Shown: positions 8,507 to 14,782 of the stretch, in pieces
Numbering within the stretch: position 1 is the stretch's first letter
How the letters are laid out: each line of letters opens with the position of its first letter
Notes under the pieces: generated by a model
Told to the model about the DNA's origin: nothing
The model's database searches: none
The model's input: only the letters and a program-made list of their open reading frames with translations
Translations under genes and position numbers: made by a program
Assembly: GCA_016180725.1 (NCBI GenBank)
Contig: JACPAR010000005.1
Location: 22,654 to 86,653, forward strand
Length of the DNA stretch: 64,000 nt
DNA from: Candidatus Levyibacteriota bacterium
Lineage (GTDB): Bacteria > Patescibacteriota > Microgenomatia > Levybacterales > UBA12049
Reading direction: 5' to 3'

Positions 8507-9565
8507 TTATTTTGCTTGATTAGAAAATAAAGAACTTGCATTTACATAAGTTATTTTACCGCTAATAAGAGATAATAATTTTTCTGTATCATCAAACCTA
8601 TCCTGACTTTTCATAACAACGATAATAAACAAGTGGCCATTTTCCATTTTTGCCGTTGTCAAAACTCCACCGGCTTCATCTGTAAATCCTGTTTTTATGC
8701 CTCTTACTCCGTCTATTCCTAATAGTTTATTTAAATTGTGAATTTCATATAGTTTTGTACCTTCTATATTAGAAATTACCGCTCGTTGAGTTGCGACAAC
8801 CTTAGCTAATACCAGGTTTTTCATTACAATTGAAGAAAGTCTTGCTAAATCAAGTACTGTTGTGTAGTCTCCTTCATCTTCCAGTCCCGCAGAATCGGAA
8901 AAATGAGTATGAATTAAATTAAAAGCCTGTGCTTTATCATTCATCTTTTCAATAAATGCAGATTCTCCTCCTGGGTAATTTTGCGCTATAGCAATTGCAG
9001 CATCATTGCCGGAAGGCAAAAGCATTGCGTATAGTAAATCTTTAAATGAAAGCTTTTCTCCTTTTTTAAATCCTACAACAGCACCTTTAACGTTACCAGT
9101 CTTAATTGTTAAAATGTCATTCATGTTATAAAAATCTAGCGCTGTTAAAGCTGTCATAATTTTTGTTGTCGAAGCCATAGAAAAACGAAGGTATGCATTT
9201 TTTGAAAATAAAACAACTTTCGACTGATCGTCCATAATAACTGCTGCTTTAGCAGAAATATCCGGTTCTGATTTGCTTATTGAAAAATTGTTTGAACTCT
9301 TTACTCCAAGAACATCCCCCGATTTTACAGGATATGGAGCAAATACCAAATTAGTAAAAGAGGGGTTAGATAACTTATTATTTTCTATTTGCTTTTTTAA
9401 GGTTGTGTTTACTAAAATGAGATTAGCCAACAAGAAAAACAACGCTAATGGGGGTAGATAAAGATAATACTTTTTAAAATCTCTGGCATGAAAATCATTT
9501 AAAAATTTTTTGCACAGTAAGAAATTTTTCTTAAGCTTTTTTATTAAGAGTAGATAATCTTTCAT
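8507..9565 (-). CDS. dacA: D-alanyl-D-alanine carboxypeptidase (peptidase S11, PBP5/6-like)
   Basis: Motifs SxxK (ASTTK), SGN (PSGND) and KTG (KTGFT). Has an N-terminal TM segment. The ATG at 9565 has a GGAG RBS. Confidence 0.85.
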   Translation of the reverse strand: MKDYLLLIKKLKKNFLLCKKFLNDFHARDFKKYYLYLPPLALFFLLANLILVNTTLKKQIENNKLSNPSFTNLVFAPYPVKSGDVLGVKSSNNFSISKSEPDISAKAAVIMDDQSKVVLFSKNAYLRFSMASTTKIMTALTALDFYNMNDILTIKTGNVKGAVVGFKKGEKLSFKDLLYAMLLPSGNDAAIAIAQNYPGGESAFIEKMNDKAQAFNLIHTHFSDSAGLEDEGDYTTVLDLARLSSIVMKNLVLAKVVATQRAVISNIEGTKLYEIHNLNKLLGIDGVRGIKTGFTDEAGGVLTTAKMENGHLFIIVVMKSQDRFDDTEKLLSLISGKITYVNASSLFSNQAK

Positions 9566-10803
9566 CGACTCGCTCCATATCTCTTGGAAACAACGAAGCT
9601 TCACGAATATTAGGCAGATCCAAAATATGCATTGTTATACGCTCCAGTCCGAAAGAAAAACCTCCTTCAGGCGGCATACCATATTTAAACGCCATTAAAT
9701 ACATGGCAAAATCTTTAGGGTTCATGCCCCTGTCTCTTATCGCCTCGACTAACTGATTATAATCATTTATTCTCTGACTGCCACTTAAAATCTCAACGCC
9801 CCTGAATAATAAATCGTAACTTAAAGAATATTCCGGATTTTTTGGATCAGGCATTGTATAAAACGCGCGTTTTTTTGTGGGAAAATGGGTAATTGTTACA
9901 AAATCTGTATTATGCTTTTCTTTTGCCCATTTACAAATATCAATTTCATCCTGAGGCATTAAGTCTTTTTCTTTTCGGTTATCTCTACCAAACTGCTTAT
10001 AAATAATTTCTTGCGCTTCGCGTAAAGCTAACCTTGGGATTTTTCCAGAAGCTACTTTTTCTAATTTAAATTCAGAAAATATATCAGCGCATTCTTTTTC
10101 TACATGTTTAAGCATATCAACAGCTACTTTTTCTAGCAAATCTAACAACTCCCCAAAACCAACAAAGCCAAATTCACAATCCAGTTGCGTTGTCTCGGAT
10201 TTGTTTGTAAAGCTGCGGGCTTTGGGTTAAAAAAGCTTTGTAGTCATAATAATCAACTCTAAATACTTCGCTTCCTCCCTCTGTAGAAGATGCTGCAATG
10301 GTAGGTACAAAAATTTCTGTGCAATCTAAGCTCTTTGCAGCTTTTCTAAATCCTTCTAAAACTTCTGCCTGAACTTTAAAAATTGCTTTTATTTTAGGAT
10401 GGCGAAGAGTTAAAGATCTGTAATCAAGAAGCGTTGGCAATTGTAACTCCAAATCTTTTCCTCCCATATCAAAAGGCAGCGCTTCTGCTTTTGAAAGTAC
10501 ATTTACACTGGTTGCCTCAATTTCGATAGTGCCAGTTACGTTTGAAGGATTAATGTATCGTTCTTCCCTTTTTTTAACTTTTCCGCTAACTTCTACCACG
10601 TCTTGTTGTCCTAAAGCAGCAATGGTACTTGCTAATGCCTCTGTTGTTCCGACTACTTGAATAAACTCCAGACGGTCTCTTAAATCAAAAAAAGCTATCT
10701 TACCGTGGCTGCGCACAGTCTGTATCCATCCATAAAGTTTTACCTCTTGACTAACCTTTTGCAAACACTCAACAGTAAGGGTTCTTTTTGAAAATTCGTC
10801 CAT
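9531..10803 (-). pseudogene. aspS: aspartyl-tRNA synthetase, archaeal/eukaryotic type, split by a frameshift plus an internal deletion that removes class II motif 2
   Basis: The N-part (10174..10803) has the OB anticodon domain through FLTQSPQLYKQ and then stops after IRDNATGL. The C-part (9531..10148, TTG start) carries SGSQRINDY, FKYGMPPEGGFSFGLERI and LFPRD. The two frames differ by 1 nt, and the roughly 21 aa spanning FRAE...RHL are absent. Confidence 0.55.
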
Positions 10804-10847
10804 ATATCTGGTAAAATATCTTTATACATAATACATTGATTTTACTG

Positions 10848-10876
10848 TCTTGACAAGCACTTCTTTGGGTGTTATA
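10848..10876 (+). promoter_or_regulatory. consensus sigma70-like promoter TTGACA-17-TATAGT
   Basis: TTGACA at 10848-10853, an exact 17-nt spacer, and TATAGT at 10871-10876. It is oriented toward ORF 11063. Confidence 0.5.
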
Positions 10877-10923
10877 GTCAAGCTGAAATGAATTTAGCGC
10901 TTATTATTAAAATGCACGTTATT

Positions 10924-11055
10924 TTCCTCCCCTTTACCTAAGGAGGGAGATTTTGTGCTGTTTTAAGAATACCAAATCTCCCCCAATAAAGGGGGATTTT
11001 AAGTGCGAAATAAACGTTCTTAATCTCCCAACAATTTTTGAAGGGAGATTTTTAA
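10924..11055 (+). promoter_or_regulatory. three tandem stem-loops (CCTCC..GGAGG / TCCCCC..GGGGGA / AATCTCCC..GGGAGATT), each followed by ATTTT, in the 5' leader
   Basis: Inverted repeats at 10926-10949, 10975-10999 and 11022-11050. The third is a perfect 8-bp stem. All share CTCCC...GGGAG(A)TTTT. Confidence 0.45.
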
Positions 11056-11062
11056 TGAAAAT

Positions 11063-11443
11063 ATGAGAGAGTATCCAATTCCACCAGGATTATCAAGAGA
11101 ACACAGAAGAGCACTTAGAACTTGTATCAAGACACAACGAATTTTTGATGAGCTGGTTGACGCTGCTCAAAATAGCGCACCAGGAACACTTATAAAGTAT
11201 TCTAATGGACACGAATCTATTGTTACTGTCGATAAAGATGGTGTTCCTGGTTTACTAGATGATTATATAGCAGGCTTAGTACATTCAGGTGTAAACCGAA
11301 GAAATGCCAGAAGAGAAGCAAATTCTTTAGAAAAAAGATTTTTTAGCGGGACACCTGATGAACAACAGGTAGTTTTTGTAACATTAAGAGGCGCTGTAGA
11401 TGGACTAAATGGGATACCTGATCCAATTAGACGAAAGACGTAA
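11063..11443 (+). CDS. hypothetical 126-aa Arg-rich protein, GC-elevated, no recognised domain
   Basis: ORF-track ORF whose GC is about 40% against about 33% for the window. It is preceded by the strong promoter and the hairpin leader. Confidence 0.4.
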   Translation: MREYPIPPGLSREHRRALRTCIKTQRIFDELVDAAQNSAPGTLIKYSNGHESIVTVDKDGVPGLLDDYIAGLVHSGVNRRNARREANSLEKRFFSGTPDEQQVVFVTLRGAVDGLNGIPDPIRRKT

Positions 11444-11498: not shown

Positions 11499-13325
11499 CT
11501 AGGGTTTTATGTCTCTTATCTTTAGCTGCAATTTTTGACTTCCATTCCATTTATTTAAGTCAATTGTATAAGCAATATCAACGCTATCGCCAACATGAAA
11601 CTCGCTTGCCCTGTCACCCATCCCAAATGCAATCGCCTCAATTCTGAATTCTGAGTTCTTAATTTTGAATTTTAATTTTAGGTGTTTGTTTTCTCTCCCA
11701 ACAAATCTCATGTCTTCTATAACTACATTTCTGCTTACAAATGTTGGCTCCGGATTTGCCATACCAAATGGCGCCAGTTTTTGAACTGTATTATAAAGCT
11801 CTGTATCAACATAAAATAAAGGGATTTCCATATCTATTCGCAACAATCGGGTAAGCATATTCTCATCTATCAATTTATGGGCTTTTTTCTCAAGCATCTC
11901 TTTAAGAAGTATTAATTTTACGGTTTCTACTGTAAAACCTGCAGCCATTGGATGACCGCCTGCATCAACTAGCAACTCCGATGCTCCTCTTATAAATTCG
12001 ATCATATTAAAACCAGAAACCGATCTTGCCGATGCTTTACTGTATTTTTCGCCTATCGATAAAACTATTGCCGGTCTGTAAAACTCTTCCACTAACTTTC
12101 CTGCAACCAGCCCAATTACTCCCTGCTGATAACTTTCGTGCGCCACAAAAAGTAATTTTTTAATTTTTTCTTTCTGATTTTTTATTCCGTCTATTGCGTG
12201 AGAAACAGTTTCTCCTGTTACCCTTTGCCTTTCTTTATTAGTAGAACCAAGTTTGGAAGCAAGATTGCGGGCCCTGTCGGCGTTTTTTGTACATAAAAGC
12301 CGTAAGCTATCCATTGCATATTCAAGTCTCCCCATCGCATTAAGCCTGGGCGCAATAATATGACCGATTTCGTATGTTCTTATTTCCTTTAGGTTTATAA
12401 CCGCTTCTTTAAAAAGTTCCAAAAGCCCAACCCTTTTTGTTTTTTGCAACTTTTCCAAACCAAATTTTACAAGCGTTCTGTTGGCTCCGATTAAAGGAAC
12501 CAAATCGGCAACAGTAGCAAGCGCCACTAATTCTAAATGTGTGTCTCCCTTTTCCATTTTTAACTTTTCACTTTGAACTTTGAACTCTTGCGATAACAAG
12601 TATGCTACTCCCGTGCCGCATAACTTTGTCGTATGAACAATTGCATATGCGTTTGGCATTTTTTTTGACGGAACGTGATGGTCGGTAATTATTACATCAA
12701 TATTATTTTTGTTAGCAAAATCAACTGCCTCATTTGCCACAATTCCATTGTCTACAGTAATTATTAGTGCAATTTTTGCTATTTGATTTTTGATATTTGA
12801 TATCCCTGTCAATGAAAGACCGTATCCTTCATCAATTCTGTGAGGAATATAAGGTGTAACTTTTGCGCCCATCGCATGAAGCGTTTCCCACAAAATTGCA
12901 GTTCCGCAAATTCCGTCAACGTCGTAGTCACCAAAAACAACAATTTGTTCTTTATCTTCAATTGCTTTTTTAATTCTCTTAATAGCTTTTTGCAATTGCT
13001 TTTTATTAATACCAACGCTATCGGTAGTTACGTTTTCGAGTTTTGGATTAAGAAACTTATCTATTTCTTTTTTTGTTTTTATCCCCCGATTTTGAAACAA
13101 TAGTCTTACTAGTTCTTCAACTTTGAACTTTGAACTCTTGTCTCCTCGAGTCCCTCGGGACTGAGTCCTCGGGACGAACGTCTGAGCGACCGATTCGGCC
13201 TGAGGGCCCTTCGGTCTTGAGCTCAGGGTCGAAAGACTCACGGCCTCGAAGGCCTCGGAGTCGAAGACCTGAGCGGAGCCGAAGGGTTGAACTTTGAACT
13301 TACTTTGTATCTCCCATTTCTTCAT
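11499..13325 (-). CDS. recJ: single-stranded-DNA-specific exonuclease RecJ
   Basis: DHH motifs (VVFGDYDVDG, ITDHH) and the DHHA1 motif GGGHPMAAG. The first ~70 codons of the N-terminus read through a GC-rich inserted element. Confidence 0.85.
   Translation of the reverse strand: MKKWEIQSKFKVQPFGSAQVFDSEAFEAVSLSTLSSRPKGPQAESVAQTFVPRTQSRGTRGDKSSKFKVEELVRLLFQNRGIKTKKEIDKFLNPKLENVTTDSVGINKKQLQKAIKRIKKAIEDKEQIVVFGDYDVDGICGTAILWETLHAMGAKVTPYIPHRIDEGYGLSLTGISNIKNQIAKIALIITVDNGIVANEAVDFANKNNIDVIITDHHVPSKKMPNAYAIVHTTKLCGTGVAYLLSQEFKVQSEKLKMEKGDTHLELVALATVADLVPLIGANRTLVKFGLEKLQKTKRVGLLELFKEAVINLKEIRTYEIGHIIAPRLNAMGRLEYAMDSLRLLCTKNADRARNLASKLGSTNKERQRVTGETVSHAIDGIKNQKEKIKKLLFVAHESYQQGVIGLVAGKLVEEFYRPAIVLSIGEKYSKASARSVSGFNMIEFIRGASELLVDAGGHPMAAGFTVETVKLILLKEMLEKKAHKLIDENMLTRLLRIDMEIPLFYVDTELYNTVQKLAPFGMANPEPTFVSRNVVIEDMRFVGRENKHLKLKFKIKNSEFRIEAIAFGMGDRASEFHVGDSVDIAYTIDLNKWNGSQKLQLKIRDIKP
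11641..11682. repeat. period-7 tandem repeats (ATTCTGA / ATTTTGA / ATTTTAA) inside the recJ 3' region
   Basis: Direct reading of the sequence. It encodes KLKFKIKNSEFRI in frame. Confidence 0.7.
13119..13304. repeat. GC-rich (~65% GC) structured insertion flanked by AACTTTGAACTTTGAACT direct repeats, at the recJ 5' end / recJ-cca divergent region
   Basis: GC composition switches sharply at 13141-13289. Internal hairpins include GTCCCTCGGGAC, GGCCTCGAAGGCC and GACCGA..TCGGTC. The 21-nt flank ACTTTGAACTTTGAACTCTTG also occurs at 12561. The 3' part is about 80% identical to 13755-13795. Confidence 0.6.
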
Positions 13326-13336
13326 ACAAAATTTAT

Positions 13337-14782
13337 TTGCTATACTATAGCAGATCCGATAAGGGTGAACAAGCTGTGCAAAAACTTATTCCGAAAATCA
13401 TTTTAAAAATTTATAAAAAGCTTCAGGAAAACAACTTCGAAGTTTACCTGGTAGGTGGATCTGTTAGAAATCTCATAATGAAATTGCCTGTAAAAGATTG
13501 GGATTTAACAACTAACGCAACCCCAGAAGAAATGCTTAAACTTTTCCCAGATGGGTTTTATGACAATACTTTTGGGACAGTAGGTATTCCAATTGAAAAG
13601 GATGGGAAAAACCAAGTTGTTGAAGTAACAACCTTTCGCACCGAACATGGGTATACCGATCGAAGACGTCCGGATAAGGTTTTATGGGGAAAGACTATAG
13701 AAGAAGATCTCGCCCGCCGTGATTTTACAATCAACGCTATAGCCCTACACCTCGAAGGTGGCCGACTCGCCCTGAGCGAAGCCGAAGGGATGGACTACTT
13801 TGAGGTGAATAAAACTGAACTCATCGATCCATTTAATGGCAAAAAAGATATCGAAAATAAGCTCATCCGTGCAGTTGGCGATCCGGATCAACGATTCAAA
13901 GAAGATGCGCTAAGGCTTTTACGAGCAATACGAATCGCCACAGAGCTTTCTTTTACTATCGAAGAAAAAACCTGGAAGGAACTGGTTACCGACGCACCAC
14001 TTATCACTCAAATATCGGAAGAAAGAATACAAATAGAACTTATGCGGATTTTAGCAAGCAATTACCCATACGATGGAATTATGTTGCTTAGAAATTCCAC
14101 TCTTTTAGAACAAATTATTCCTGAGCTTTTAAAAGGCGTTGGCGTTTCCCAGGTAAGACCGGGCAGACACCACACAACAGATGTTTTTACCCATAACGTT
14201 TTATCGCTTAAATATACTCCGTCCACCGATCCTATTGTTAGATTTGCAGCGCTTTTACATGATGTTGGAAAACCTTACGTTGCCTCAACAGACGAACATG
14301 GTCTTGTAATCTTTCATAATCACGAAATTGTCGGCGCAAAGATGGCAAAAGAAATCTGCGAAAGACTAAAGTTCTCCAAAAAAGAACGGGAAAAAATTGT
14401 TAACCTTATCCGCTGGCATATGTTTACGGTTGATGAAAAAATCACCGACGCAGCGGTTCGAAGATTTATCCGCCGGGTTGGCGTTGAAAATGTAAAAGAT
14501 ATGATGGATCTTCGTATTGGAGATAGATTAGGCGGAGGAACACAAACTGCAGAAAGCTGGAGACTAAAGTTATTTAAAAAAAGAGTGGAAGATCAATTAA
14601 AACCCGCACCTTTTTCCATTAACGATTTAGTCATTGACGGGAATGATGTAATGAAAGAATTGAACATTAAGCCTGGTCCTAAAGTTGGCGAAATACTGCA
14701 AAAACTTTTTGAAGAAGTTGACGAAGACCTTTCAAGGAATAATCGTGAATACCTACTTAAACGCATACACGAATTAGACTAA
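13337..14782 (+). CDS. cca: CCA-adding tRNA nucleotidyltransferase with HD domain
   Basis: Pol-beta NTase head (LVGGSVRNL...DWDL), RDFTINA, and an HD motif HDVGKP. The start is a TTG at 13337 or a GTG at 13376 (VQKLIPK). Confidence 0.85.
   Translation: MLYYSRSDKGEQAVQKLIPKIILKIYKKLQENNFEVYLVGGSVRNLIMKLPVKDWDLTTNATPEEMLKLFPDGFYDNTFGTVGIPIEKDGKNQVVEVTTFRTEHGYTDRRRPDKVLWGKTIEEDLARRDFTINAIALHLEGGRLALSEAEGMDYFEVNKTELIDPFNGKKDIENKLIRAVGDPDQRFKEDALRLLRAIRIATELSFTIEEKTWKELVTDAPLITQISEERIQIELMRILASNYPYDGIMLLRNSTLLEQIIPELLKGVGVSQVRPGRHHTTDVFTHNVLSLKYTPSTDPIVRFAALLHDVGKPYVASTDEHGLVIFHNHEIVGAKMAKEICERLKFSKKEREKIVNLIRWHMFTVDEKITDAAVRRFIRRVGVENVKDMMDLRIGDRLGGGTQTAESWRLKLFKKRVEDQLKPAPFSINDLVIDGNDVMKELNIKPGPKVGEILQKLFEEVDEDLSRNNREYLLKRIHELD
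13755..13795. repeat. GC-rich element copy inserted in-frame in cca (encodes LEGGRLALSEAEG)
   Basis: CCTCGAAGG...GAGCGAAGCCGAAGGG aligns with the 3' part of the 13141-13289 element. Confidence 0.55.

Follow-up and report, generated by a model that had tools for sequence, protein, structure and literature searches.

We analysed a stretch of 64,000 nucleotides (nt) from a Candidatus Levyibacteriota bacterium (contig JACPAR010000005.1, positions 22,654 to 86,653; hereafter the window) and focused on the 695 nt that separate aspS (minus strand, start at 10803) from recJ (minus strand, end at 11499). This gap contains a promoter followed by a short open reading frame (ORF), three hairpins and a gene for a protein of 126 amino acids (aa) that starts at 11063. 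Judging from the sequence and its predicted folding, this element is probably a ribosome-mediated (leader-peptide) transcription attenuator controlling the 126-aa gene, and the switch most likely decides whether the gene is transcribed and translated. The element represents a new family, absent from Rfam 15, within a regulatory kind that is well known.

What we can see directly are the sequence features, the competing helices with their energies, and the conservation of the layout, of the ORF and of the position of its stop codon. The organisation is that of the amino-acid operon leaders (trpL, pheL, hisL, leuL, ilvL). A short ORF lies close to the promoter, is conserved in position and frame in 7/8 Levybacteria loci and contains segment 1; its stop codon separates segment 1 from segment 2. 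The alternative pairings (1:2, 2:3 and 3:4) exclude one another, with the same states in relatives, and 3:4 is a predicted intrinsic terminator (a G+C stem and a U-run) directly upstream of the putatively regulated gene.

Promoter, leader ORF and competing helices

The features of the element are collected in Table 1. The promoter matches the consensus at 11 of 12 positions (-10 TATAGT at 10873-78, upstream TG at 10870-71) and is the top sigma-70-like site over the 13 kb that were scanned (5-18 kb). TTGACA-N17-TATAGT occurs a single time in the 64 kb window, compared to 0.01 occurrences expected. An earlier reading of the DNA, made by a model from the letters and a list of ORFs (the sequence-only reading), had described the promoter as near-consensus and rare in the window, and we find the same. 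The -35 hexamer is embedded in a near-palindrome, CTTGACAAG (10849-57), that adjoins aspS in all Levybacteria relatives. This box also supplies the -35 of a promoter-like site on the minus strand, TTGTCA-17-TATTAT (10856..10828), which faces aspS. Since the box is kept beside aspS in all these relatives, the divergent promoters may compete or be co-regulated.

Table 1. Coordinates of the features of the putative attenuator in the window; the roles of the RNA structures are predictions
Feature	Position	Strand	Details
Sigma-70-type promoter	10850..10878	+	-35 TTGACA 10850-55, 17-nt spacer, extended -10 TGnTATAGT 10870-78
Leader ORF	10888..10941	+	17 codons plus stop, peptide MNLALIIKMHVIFLPFT
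Hairpin 1 (A:B), putative anti-antiterminator	10921..10954	+	arm A AUUUUCCUCC 10921-30, arm B GGAGGGAGAU 10942-51, then UUU; -11.3 kcal/mol
Alternative helix B:C, putative antiterminator 1	10942..10984	+	10942-53 with 10974-84; -17.8 kcal/mol, z = -4.35, 0/200 shuffles equal
Hairpin 2 (C:D), putative terminator 1	10974..11000	+	UCCCCC-AAUAAA-GGGGGA then UUUU; 10979-84 with 10991-96; -12.0 kcal/mol
Alternative helix D:E, putative antiterminator 2	10991..11029	+	GGGGGAU..UAAG with CUUA..AUCUCCC; -15.0 kcal/mol, z = -4.37, 0/200 shuffles equal
Hairpin 3 (E:F), putative terminator 2, Shine-Dalgarno-sequestering	11022..11053	+	AAUCUCCC-N13-GGGAGAUU then UUU; 11022-29 with 11043-50; -11.3 kcal/mol
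Mini-ORF ATG AAA ATA TGA	11055..11066	+	6 nt past GGGAGA; stop overlaps the gene ATG at 11063 (ATGA)
Putatively regulated gene, 126-aa protein	11063..11443	+	small uncharacterised family in the Levybacteria aspS-recJ gap

The ATG of the leader ORF (10888-90) is found 9 nt past the -10 element, without a Shine-Dalgarno (SD) sequence, and with the transcription start that we infer from the promoter the ORF would be leaderless or nearly so. The stop codon TAA (10939-41) lies in the loop of hairpin 1, directly before the 3' arm (arm B), and codons 12-15 encode arm A. That the ORF ends inside hairpin 1 had already been seen in the sequence-only reading. Its coordinates for the leader needed correction: the ATG had been placed at 10886, 10 nt after the -10 element, and the peptide of 26 codons results from a slip of the reading frame after its codon 13. 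Its account of the promoter, of the stem-loops and of the ORF starting at 11063 stands.

The leader contains six arms, A (10921-30), B (10942-54), C (10974-84), D (10991-11000), E (11022-29) and F (11043-53). They form three related stem-loops, each followed by AUUUU as described earlier, with a U-run of 4 U at hairpin 2 and of 5 U at hairpin 3. Hairpin 2 was flagged as terminator-like in a terminator scan. The three had been presented as equivalents, which is wrong for hairpin 1, a predicted anti-antiterminator that has no U-run in relatives. In hairpin 2, CCCCC/GGGGG replaces the CUCCC/GGGAG of hairpin 3 and of the orthologues, a compensated change. As a separate observation, three independent Logan assemblies (L003, L005 and L006, with position 1 corresponding to 10996 of the window) break exactly within hairpin 2, past the GGGGG run, which suggests a loss of coverage or a sequencing difficulty at this C5/G5 hairpin.

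Folding of the alternative structures, which the sequence-only reading had suggested, shows that the arms can re-pair as B:C and D:E, each of which is more stable than the hairpins that it displaces. The whole leader of 191 nt folds with z = -4.8, and its complete fold is A:B + C:D + E:F; when A is masked, the fold changes to B:C + D:E, and arm F is unpaired in the centroid structure. The pairing of the D:E flanks (UUAAG/CUUAA) is not dictated by the repeated arms, and neither is that of the B:C flanks. GGGAGA (11043-48, in arm F) is the sole SD-like sequence upstream of the 11063 gene. The arms B and D are SD-like as well, with start codons 5-6 nt further on. The mini-ORF in front of the gene may be a translational coupling device, as we infer from its overlap with the gene start; junctions of the type ...AUAUGA(G) are found in L011 and L010, and AUGGGGUAA in L048.

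The motif is confined to this locus. CTCCC-N3-20-GGGAG occurs twice in 64 kb, both times in the leader, whereas 0.17 occurrences are expected. A covariance model search of the window found no second copy, and 150.8 kb of Levybacteria DNA likewise contain the motif just once. The search for further sites, another of the earlier suggestions, thus returned this locus only, which rules out a generic repeat or a standard terminator. A CRISPR (clustered regularly interspaced short palindromic repeats) array, which would need direct repeats of at least 23 nt around unique spacers of similar length, had rightly been excluded; the direct repeats are only 11 nt long (AGGGAGATTTT), at a spacing of 46 and 52 nt. 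We were not able to find any match in a scan of the window and eight related loci against Rfam 15 at the gathering threshold. In a permissive scan, the best sub-threshold scores were 24.1 bits for FdoG1_thermometer (RF02778, threshold 50), 20 for Phe_leader (RF01859, threshold 55) and 18.1 for PyrR (RF00515, threshold 54), all of which we treated as chance matches.

Conservation of the element in relatives

The genomes with the nearest RecJ proteins (61-66% identity) are metagenome-assembled genomes of Candidatus Levybacteria/Levyibacteriota, which belong to the Candidate Phyla Radiation. The synteny cca-recJ-gap-aspS, with a gap of about 370-2100 nt, is kept in six Levybacteria genomes. Using recJ synteny or homologues of the downstream protein, we located seven other Levybacteria loci (L009, L010, L011, L013, L048, L049 and L052), which have a common layout of promoter, short ORF, hairpin 1, AAUCUCCC-loop-GGGAGAUUUUUU terminator and gene. 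The gaps of L009, L010, L011 and L013 contain CTTGACAAG(C/A) with a -10 element at 16-18 nt and the short ORF; the 3' arm of hairpin 1 reads GAGGG(A/G)G, (A/C)AAUCUCCC-loop-GGGAGAUUUUUU comes next, and the gene is found 10-30 nt further on. In L048, L049 and L052 an equivalent leader lies upstream of homologues of the 126-aa ORF; in L049 the gene is ~100 nt further away. The promoter box in the form CTTGACAAG(C/A/G), with the -10 at 16-18 nt, is kept in L009-L013, L048, L049 and L052. The architecture is fixed across the loci, with the -35 ~93 nt upstream of arm B and the leader stop at the edge of B. The sequence-only reading had offered two interpretations, a transcription-attenuation leader or a triple operator for a dimeric repressor. 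The first is supported by the re-pairing of B:C and D:E, by the stop abutting B and by a layout that is kept at the RecJ identity given above; the second, discussed below, is not borne out.

To quantify the conservation of the leader ORF, we counted ORFs of 13-22 codons with a stop within a few nucleotides of GAGGGRG, using dinucleotide shuffles as the null model. Such an ORF is present in 7/8 Levybacteria loci (the window included; the loci were gathered without using the RNA pattern), compared to ~2.6% per locus in the shuffles (binomial P ~6e-11, a value that overstates independence because the loci are related, their mean identity nonetheless being only about 57-60%). In the seven other loci the ORF is 16-20 codons long and its stop adjoins GAGGGRG in 6/7, with TAA, TAG and TGA all in use at this conserved site. 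The start codon, without an SD sequence, lies 10-14 nt from the nearest -10 element in 6/7 of these loci (12-14 nt in L048, L049 and L052), the start in L013 being ambiguous; in a set of 10 loci with a recognisable promoter and start, it is found 7-13 nt past the -10. These short distances point to a leaderless or almost leaderless ORF in all loci.

The peptides themselves are conserved as well. Next to that of the window we see MNLSCIFGINKYFPRFK in L048, MNLSFLYTFKMIHPFSVK in L049, MKIRCTHITLFYLTPVNKQM in L052, MKLSFSCITHRFLLFR in L011 and MDLSFAKFIYKNIFLFM in L010. The conservation of M-[NK]-L-S... and ...F-[LP]-x-F exceeds what the hairpin arms demand. The peptides share a basic residue followed by hydrophobic residues of the F-[L/M]-L type ([R/K/H]-x-F-[L/M]-L), where a stall would need to fall.

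The predicted minimum-energy fold of the full-length leader is A:B + C:D in 8/8 Levybacteria loci, and the local energy of B..C is below that of C..D in 7/8. The sequence of hairpin 1 shifts while its pairing is kept; for example, we find UCCUCC/GGAGGGA in the window, CCCACGC/GCGGGGG in L048 and UCUUCAUCG/CGAUGAGGGAGA in L009. We dropped a column-wise counting of covariation because MAFFT loses the register of helices of variable length, and compared duplex energies within and between loci instead. Arms of one locus match each other better than arms of different loci, both in hairpin 1 (A:B, p = 0.009) and in the B:C flanks that lie beyond the invariant 9-nt core (p = 0.027); a covariation test of the inner C:D stem was uninformative. 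A conserved UUG/GUG-UAA after B, considered as a possible 'start-stop', is better explained by an extended B:C helix (GUUGUA/UACAAC in L033 and L039).

In the relatives there is a single A:B / B:C / C:D module with GGGAGA and a tail of 6-9 U, and the gene has its own SD sequence, separate and unpaired past the terminator (GGAGGAAGG in L011, AAAGGAGG in L009, AAAGGAGGAA in L052). The loop of the single terminator of L048 resembles that of hairpin 3 in the window, so that hairpin 3 looks like the ancestral terminator. Furthermore, the flank of arm C in the window is identical to that of L011 (ACCAAAUCUCCC). Taken together, these similarities suggest that the window has acquired a further terminator module.

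In L012 the same promoter and a GTG AAA start run straight into an ORF of 423 aa, with no hairpins (gap ~90-130, in window orientation), and the encoded protein shares 29% identity with the 446-aa protein that follows the attenuator in L010. The sequence gives the impression that the attenuator was lost and the start of the leader joined to the gene behind it.

Outside of Levybacteria, we scanned metagenomes with the pattern GAGGGRG-N15-45-AATCTCCC-N6-25-GGGAGATTTT and obtained 23 contigs; the same scan of a viral contig collection gave no matches. Six distinct contigs (L027, L029, L033, L039, L041 and L045; 40-53% G+C, mostly from the rhizosphere) share features that are not part of the pattern. 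An equally spaced sigma-70 promoter is recognisable in L027, L033, L039 and L041; none was found in L029, and L045 ends at the contig edge. Leaderless ORFs such as MKLSYKRFFRLPLSV, MKLHTQRQAFMLNLVIIG and MNFQPKQHRIFMLNLVKPRGRFAL are present, the B:C helix is extended (GUUGUA/UACAAC, for instance) and, where the contig reaches far enough, a gene lies 12-30 nt past the U-run. In two of them the element lies between murE and groES/groEL, and the downstream genes are small and uncharacterised.

A covariance model trained on seven Levybacteria leaders only gave 39.6 bits for the held-out L013 and 26-47 bits, over the full length, for L039, L027, L045, L029 and L033; L041 scored 18.5 bits in the terminator part only. 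Control contigs that match the pattern reached at most 24 bits, and at most 21 on the pattern site, mostly in the terminator part; the top scores were off-site. The model also matches two low-G+C contigs, L040 (6818-6924), with a 33-codon ORF ending at GAGGGAG and a terminator upstream of greA, and L031 (6714-6832), with a long hairpin and a terminator upstream of tRNA-Asn. By their sequence, these may be distant relatives with other targets.

Proposed mechanism, rival explanations and known systems

The attenuator could work as follows. Transcription would start at about 10885, with the leader start codon within the first few nucleotides. If the leader is not translated, or if the ribosome sits at the stop codon (10939-41), arm B would be paired with A or shielded by the ribosome. 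With B unavailable, terminator 1 (C:D) would form, and a polymerase escaping it would meet terminator 2 (E:F), which would also bury GGGAGA. On the other hand, a ribosome stalled at about codons 8-13 would cover arm A only and leave B available for pairing with C once C has been transcribed. The B:C helix would free D, D:E would block E:F, and arm F would stay single-stranded, leaving no terminator and an open ribosome-binding site. The relay in the window would thus release transcription and translation together. Two candidates for the stalling signal are a limited supply of a hydrophobic amino acid or of charged tRNA, and a drug- or metabolite-dependent arrest on [R/K/H]-x-F-[L/M]-L.

Several points weigh against this mechanism. 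With A masked, B:C is the thermodynamic minimum in just 4/8 Levybacteria loci, which makes the model dependent on the folding order during transcription. Part of the complementarity of B:C and D:E is automatic, since all three hairpins share their arms. Both permutation tests of complementarity within and between loci reach modest significance only, and their sequences are partly related. Strict covariation evidence is thin because the core arms are almost invariant. The U-tails in the window are short (4 and 5 U), which makes the termination efficiency uncertain. A run of identical regulatory codons is missing from the leader, and the 126-aa gene offers no hint of the signal. The members outside of Levybacteria were collected with a pattern in which the cores of B, C and D were preset. 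Finally, the transcription start, the translation of the leader, the termination at the hairpins and the stalling signal are all deduced rather than observed.

Potentially, the element could be a small gene of its own. It would then give a messenger or small RNA of ~115-170 nt whose product is a hydrophobic micropeptide or the RNA itself, and the 11063 gene would be expressed incidentally or from elsewhere. The conservation of the leader peptide beyond the needs of the hairpin arms speaks for this view, the downstream genes do vary among relatives, L049 has ~100 nt and another repeat element between terminator and gene, and the strong terminator of the relatives (6-9 U) would stop most transcripts. 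Nevertheless, in 10/11 clear cases a gene on the same strand follows 8-30 nt past the U-run with no intervening promoter. The B:C helix extends past the shared core and outdoes the terminator in 7/8 loci, which would be needless for a plain terminator. Furthermore, the leader stop is placed exactly at the edge of B, and the long downstream ORF of L012 is under the direct control of this promoter and the GTG AAA start. We consider a stand-alone gene unlikely.

Another explanation is an attenuator that depends on a factor, in the manner of PyrR, TRAP or a riboswitch: a protein or ligand would stabilise hairpin 1 or B:C, and the short ORF would be incidental. Conservation of the ORF, of its length and of where it stops is far above chance, with all three stop codons in use; this and the close spacing to the downstream gene speak against the idea, which we regard as unlikely. 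The arms GGGAGAUUU and AAAUCUCCC are conserved in sequence and not just in pairing, which could mark a binding site; on the other hand, this is expected anyway because B, C and D must remain mutually complementary. There is a weak resemblance to the PyrR binding-site model (18 bits compared to a threshold of 54), whereas no Rfam family reaches its gathering score, no aptamer-like domain is conserved, and the sequence of hairpin 1 is free to vary.

In a third scenario the control is purely translational, i.e. the hairpins only hide the SD sequence, as in an RNA thermometer or an erm-type leader, and termination is not regulated. This would fit the window, where hairpin 3 buries the only SD-like sequence before the gene, where B and D are SD-like and where the U-tails are short; the FdoG-1 thermometer match points the same way, at 24.1 bits far under its threshold of 50. 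Since the relatives have 6-9 U past the terminator and, further on, an unpaired SD sequence that belongs to the gene alone, the sequestration is not a conserved feature, and we regard this scenario as very unlikely. Finally, an array of DNA operators, in which a dimeric repressor that controls the divergent promoters would bind three inverted repeats of the AATCTCCC/GGGAGATT type, grouped within 130 bp on the downstream side of a strong promoter, can be dismissed as extremely unlikely, because the spacing of the half-sites (11, 6 and 13 nt in the window, 10-20 nt in orthologues) is incompatible with a fixed dimer geometry, the relatives hold only one such repeat and a hairpin 1 of drifting sequence, the T-run is one-sided and the ORF lies on one strand, the conserved ORF and stop placement would be left unexplained, and no regulator gene is linked to the element.

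We then compared the ribosome-mediated attenuator with known systems. It differs from the amino-acid operon leaders in that the window element has no run of codons for a single amino acid, its leader ORF is probably leaderless instead of SD-led, and the peptide is conserved in sequence. The putative target is not biosynthetic either; it is an uncharacterised 126-aa protein, replaced by other unknown genes in relatives. Membership in the trpL/pheL/hisL type was rejected, as there are no tandem regulatory codons and the downstream proteins have no Pfam assignment, and the Phe_leader score is well below its threshold. To our knowledge, the Candidate Phyla Radiation host lacks amino-acid operons of the trpL/pheL type.

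The erm attenuators (ermA, ermD, ermB) combine two leader ORFs with several hairpins (PMC8274638), and the leaders of msrD (MsrDL, bioRxiv 10.1101/2021.11.29.470318) and vmlR (PMC9226507) are transcription attenuators that sense drugs. As in these systems, the leader peptide is short, sequence-conserved and hydrophobic, and a stall would trigger a relay of re-pairing in several hairpins. The last hairpin of the window is predicted to hide the SD sequence of the gene, as in erm leaders: GGGAGA is paired in E:F and becomes unpaired in the centroid structure once D:E forms, while the SD sequence of the relatives is separate. The proposed window switch can be described as a multi-hairpin, erm-like relay (PMC8274638) joined to a trp-like terminator switch. 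Unlike erm, msrD and vmlR, there is no resistance gene downstream (rRNA methyltransferase or ABC-F), so that a resistance leader of the erm/cat type is not supported; also, a known arrest motif is not demonstrated in the window leader. Two further differences from erm are that there is no established second leader with translation, the mini-ORFs behind B and D being just 3 and 6 codons long, and that the conserved module ends in a U-run terminator, not in an SD trap alone.

In mycobacteria, leaderless short ORFs with polycysteine tracts serve as ribosome-stalling attenuators (bioRxiv 10.1101/834739). The similarity is that the sensory ORF lies at the 5' end of the transcript or a few nucleotides from it, without an SD sequence, and that, as proposed here, a stalled ribosome blocks an RNA structure that would otherwise silence the downstream gene. 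The mycobacterial ORFs sense cysteine through their Cys-codon tracts and act on the ribosome-binding site, whereas the window has no codon tract and the predicted main output is an intrinsic terminator.

A more speculative extension, to which we would give a small chance as a whole, is that the element is a portable, leaderless arrest-peptide sensor in several lineages with small genomes, which would switch on swapped-in accessory genes. Stalling on [R/K/H]-x-F-[L/M]-L would report translation stress due to an antibiotic, a host-derived molecule or a phage attack, and the targets would be fast-evolving genes at hot spots such as aspS-recJ in Levybacteria and murE-groES in the rhizosphere lineage (~40-53% GC).

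In a full-text literature search, we found no description of a cis-regulatory RNA of this kind in Candidate Phyla Radiation bacteria. These bacteria are uncultured, and little is known about how they regulate their genes. The element would combine a sequence-conserved leaderless peptide, a two-step terminator relay that gates the ribosome-binding site (in this genome) and variable downstream genes. It would provide a testable handle on the translational signal that reduced bacteria monitor and on the conditions under which the variable genes are needed.

Downstream gene and genomic setting

The sequence-only reading had called the 11063 gene an orphan, which is not strictly the case. A sensitive search found homologues of the 126-aa protein at 32-40% identity, and all of those with identifiable flanks sit in the aspS-recJ gap. 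An alignment of nine members of the family has 16 invariant positions. We were not able to find any match for the protein in Pfam, PADLOC, PHROGs, a PDB sequence profile search or Foldseek-PDB. Two AlphaFold models have a predicted local distance difference test (pLDDT) score of 58 and 69, and the latter predicts a long helix, a beta-hairpin and three helices.

Some relatives have unrelated genes behind the attenuator, and some others lack the attenuator and have a gene of the 126-aa family downstream of arrayed repeats that resemble TTGTCAGG, so that the aspS-recJ gap is a variable spot. The alternative downstream genes have no Pfam or other assignment, except for a sigma-70 region-4 ORF in L010. 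For the 446-aa and 274-aa downstream proteins, a RelA/SpoT-like identity was considered and found to be without support on checking. In the relatives without the attenuator, three further TTGTCAGG / TGTCAG / TGTCAAGCGG repeats follow a TTGACAAG box. The arrays are found in L050 (438-500), L051 (40-185) and L053 (3918-3970), at equivalent positions in L054 and L057, in L020, and in L049 (295-330). By its sequence, the array looks like an operator or a multi-site promoter region, so that the 126-aa gene family appears to have two alternative control regions.

Compared to the strain contig L007 over ~8 kb, the window shows, besides an indel in aspS, five differences, and all of them fall into 65 nt (11209-11273) of the 126-aa gene. 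They are a 1-nt indel (a frameshift allele in L007 and L008) and four substitutions, all of them nonsynonymous. This segment is a local hot spot of variation in an otherwise identical background.

The window has a G+C content of 34.5%, and the element is flanked by the housekeeping genes gltX, D-Ala-D-Ala carboxypeptidase, aspS, recJ and cca. A scan for tRNA and transfer-messenger RNA genes found none in the window. Leader copies with identical sequence are present in several sequencing runs. The aspS gene (9531-10803, minus strand) is broken into two ORFs near 10148-10198; compared to L007, which is otherwise 100% identical and has an intact aspS (450 aa), the window lacks ~80 nt at ~10198. 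This break reflects either a fault of the assembly or a genuine deletion that inactivates an essential gene. There are also two spikes of G+C content in the window, of 0.555 (13100-13300) and 0.50 (13600-13800). The first covers the part of recJ for the N-terminal ~65 residues, which are unmatched in most relatives, and the second falls within the gene of the CCA-adding enzyme. Both may be lineage-specific insertions.

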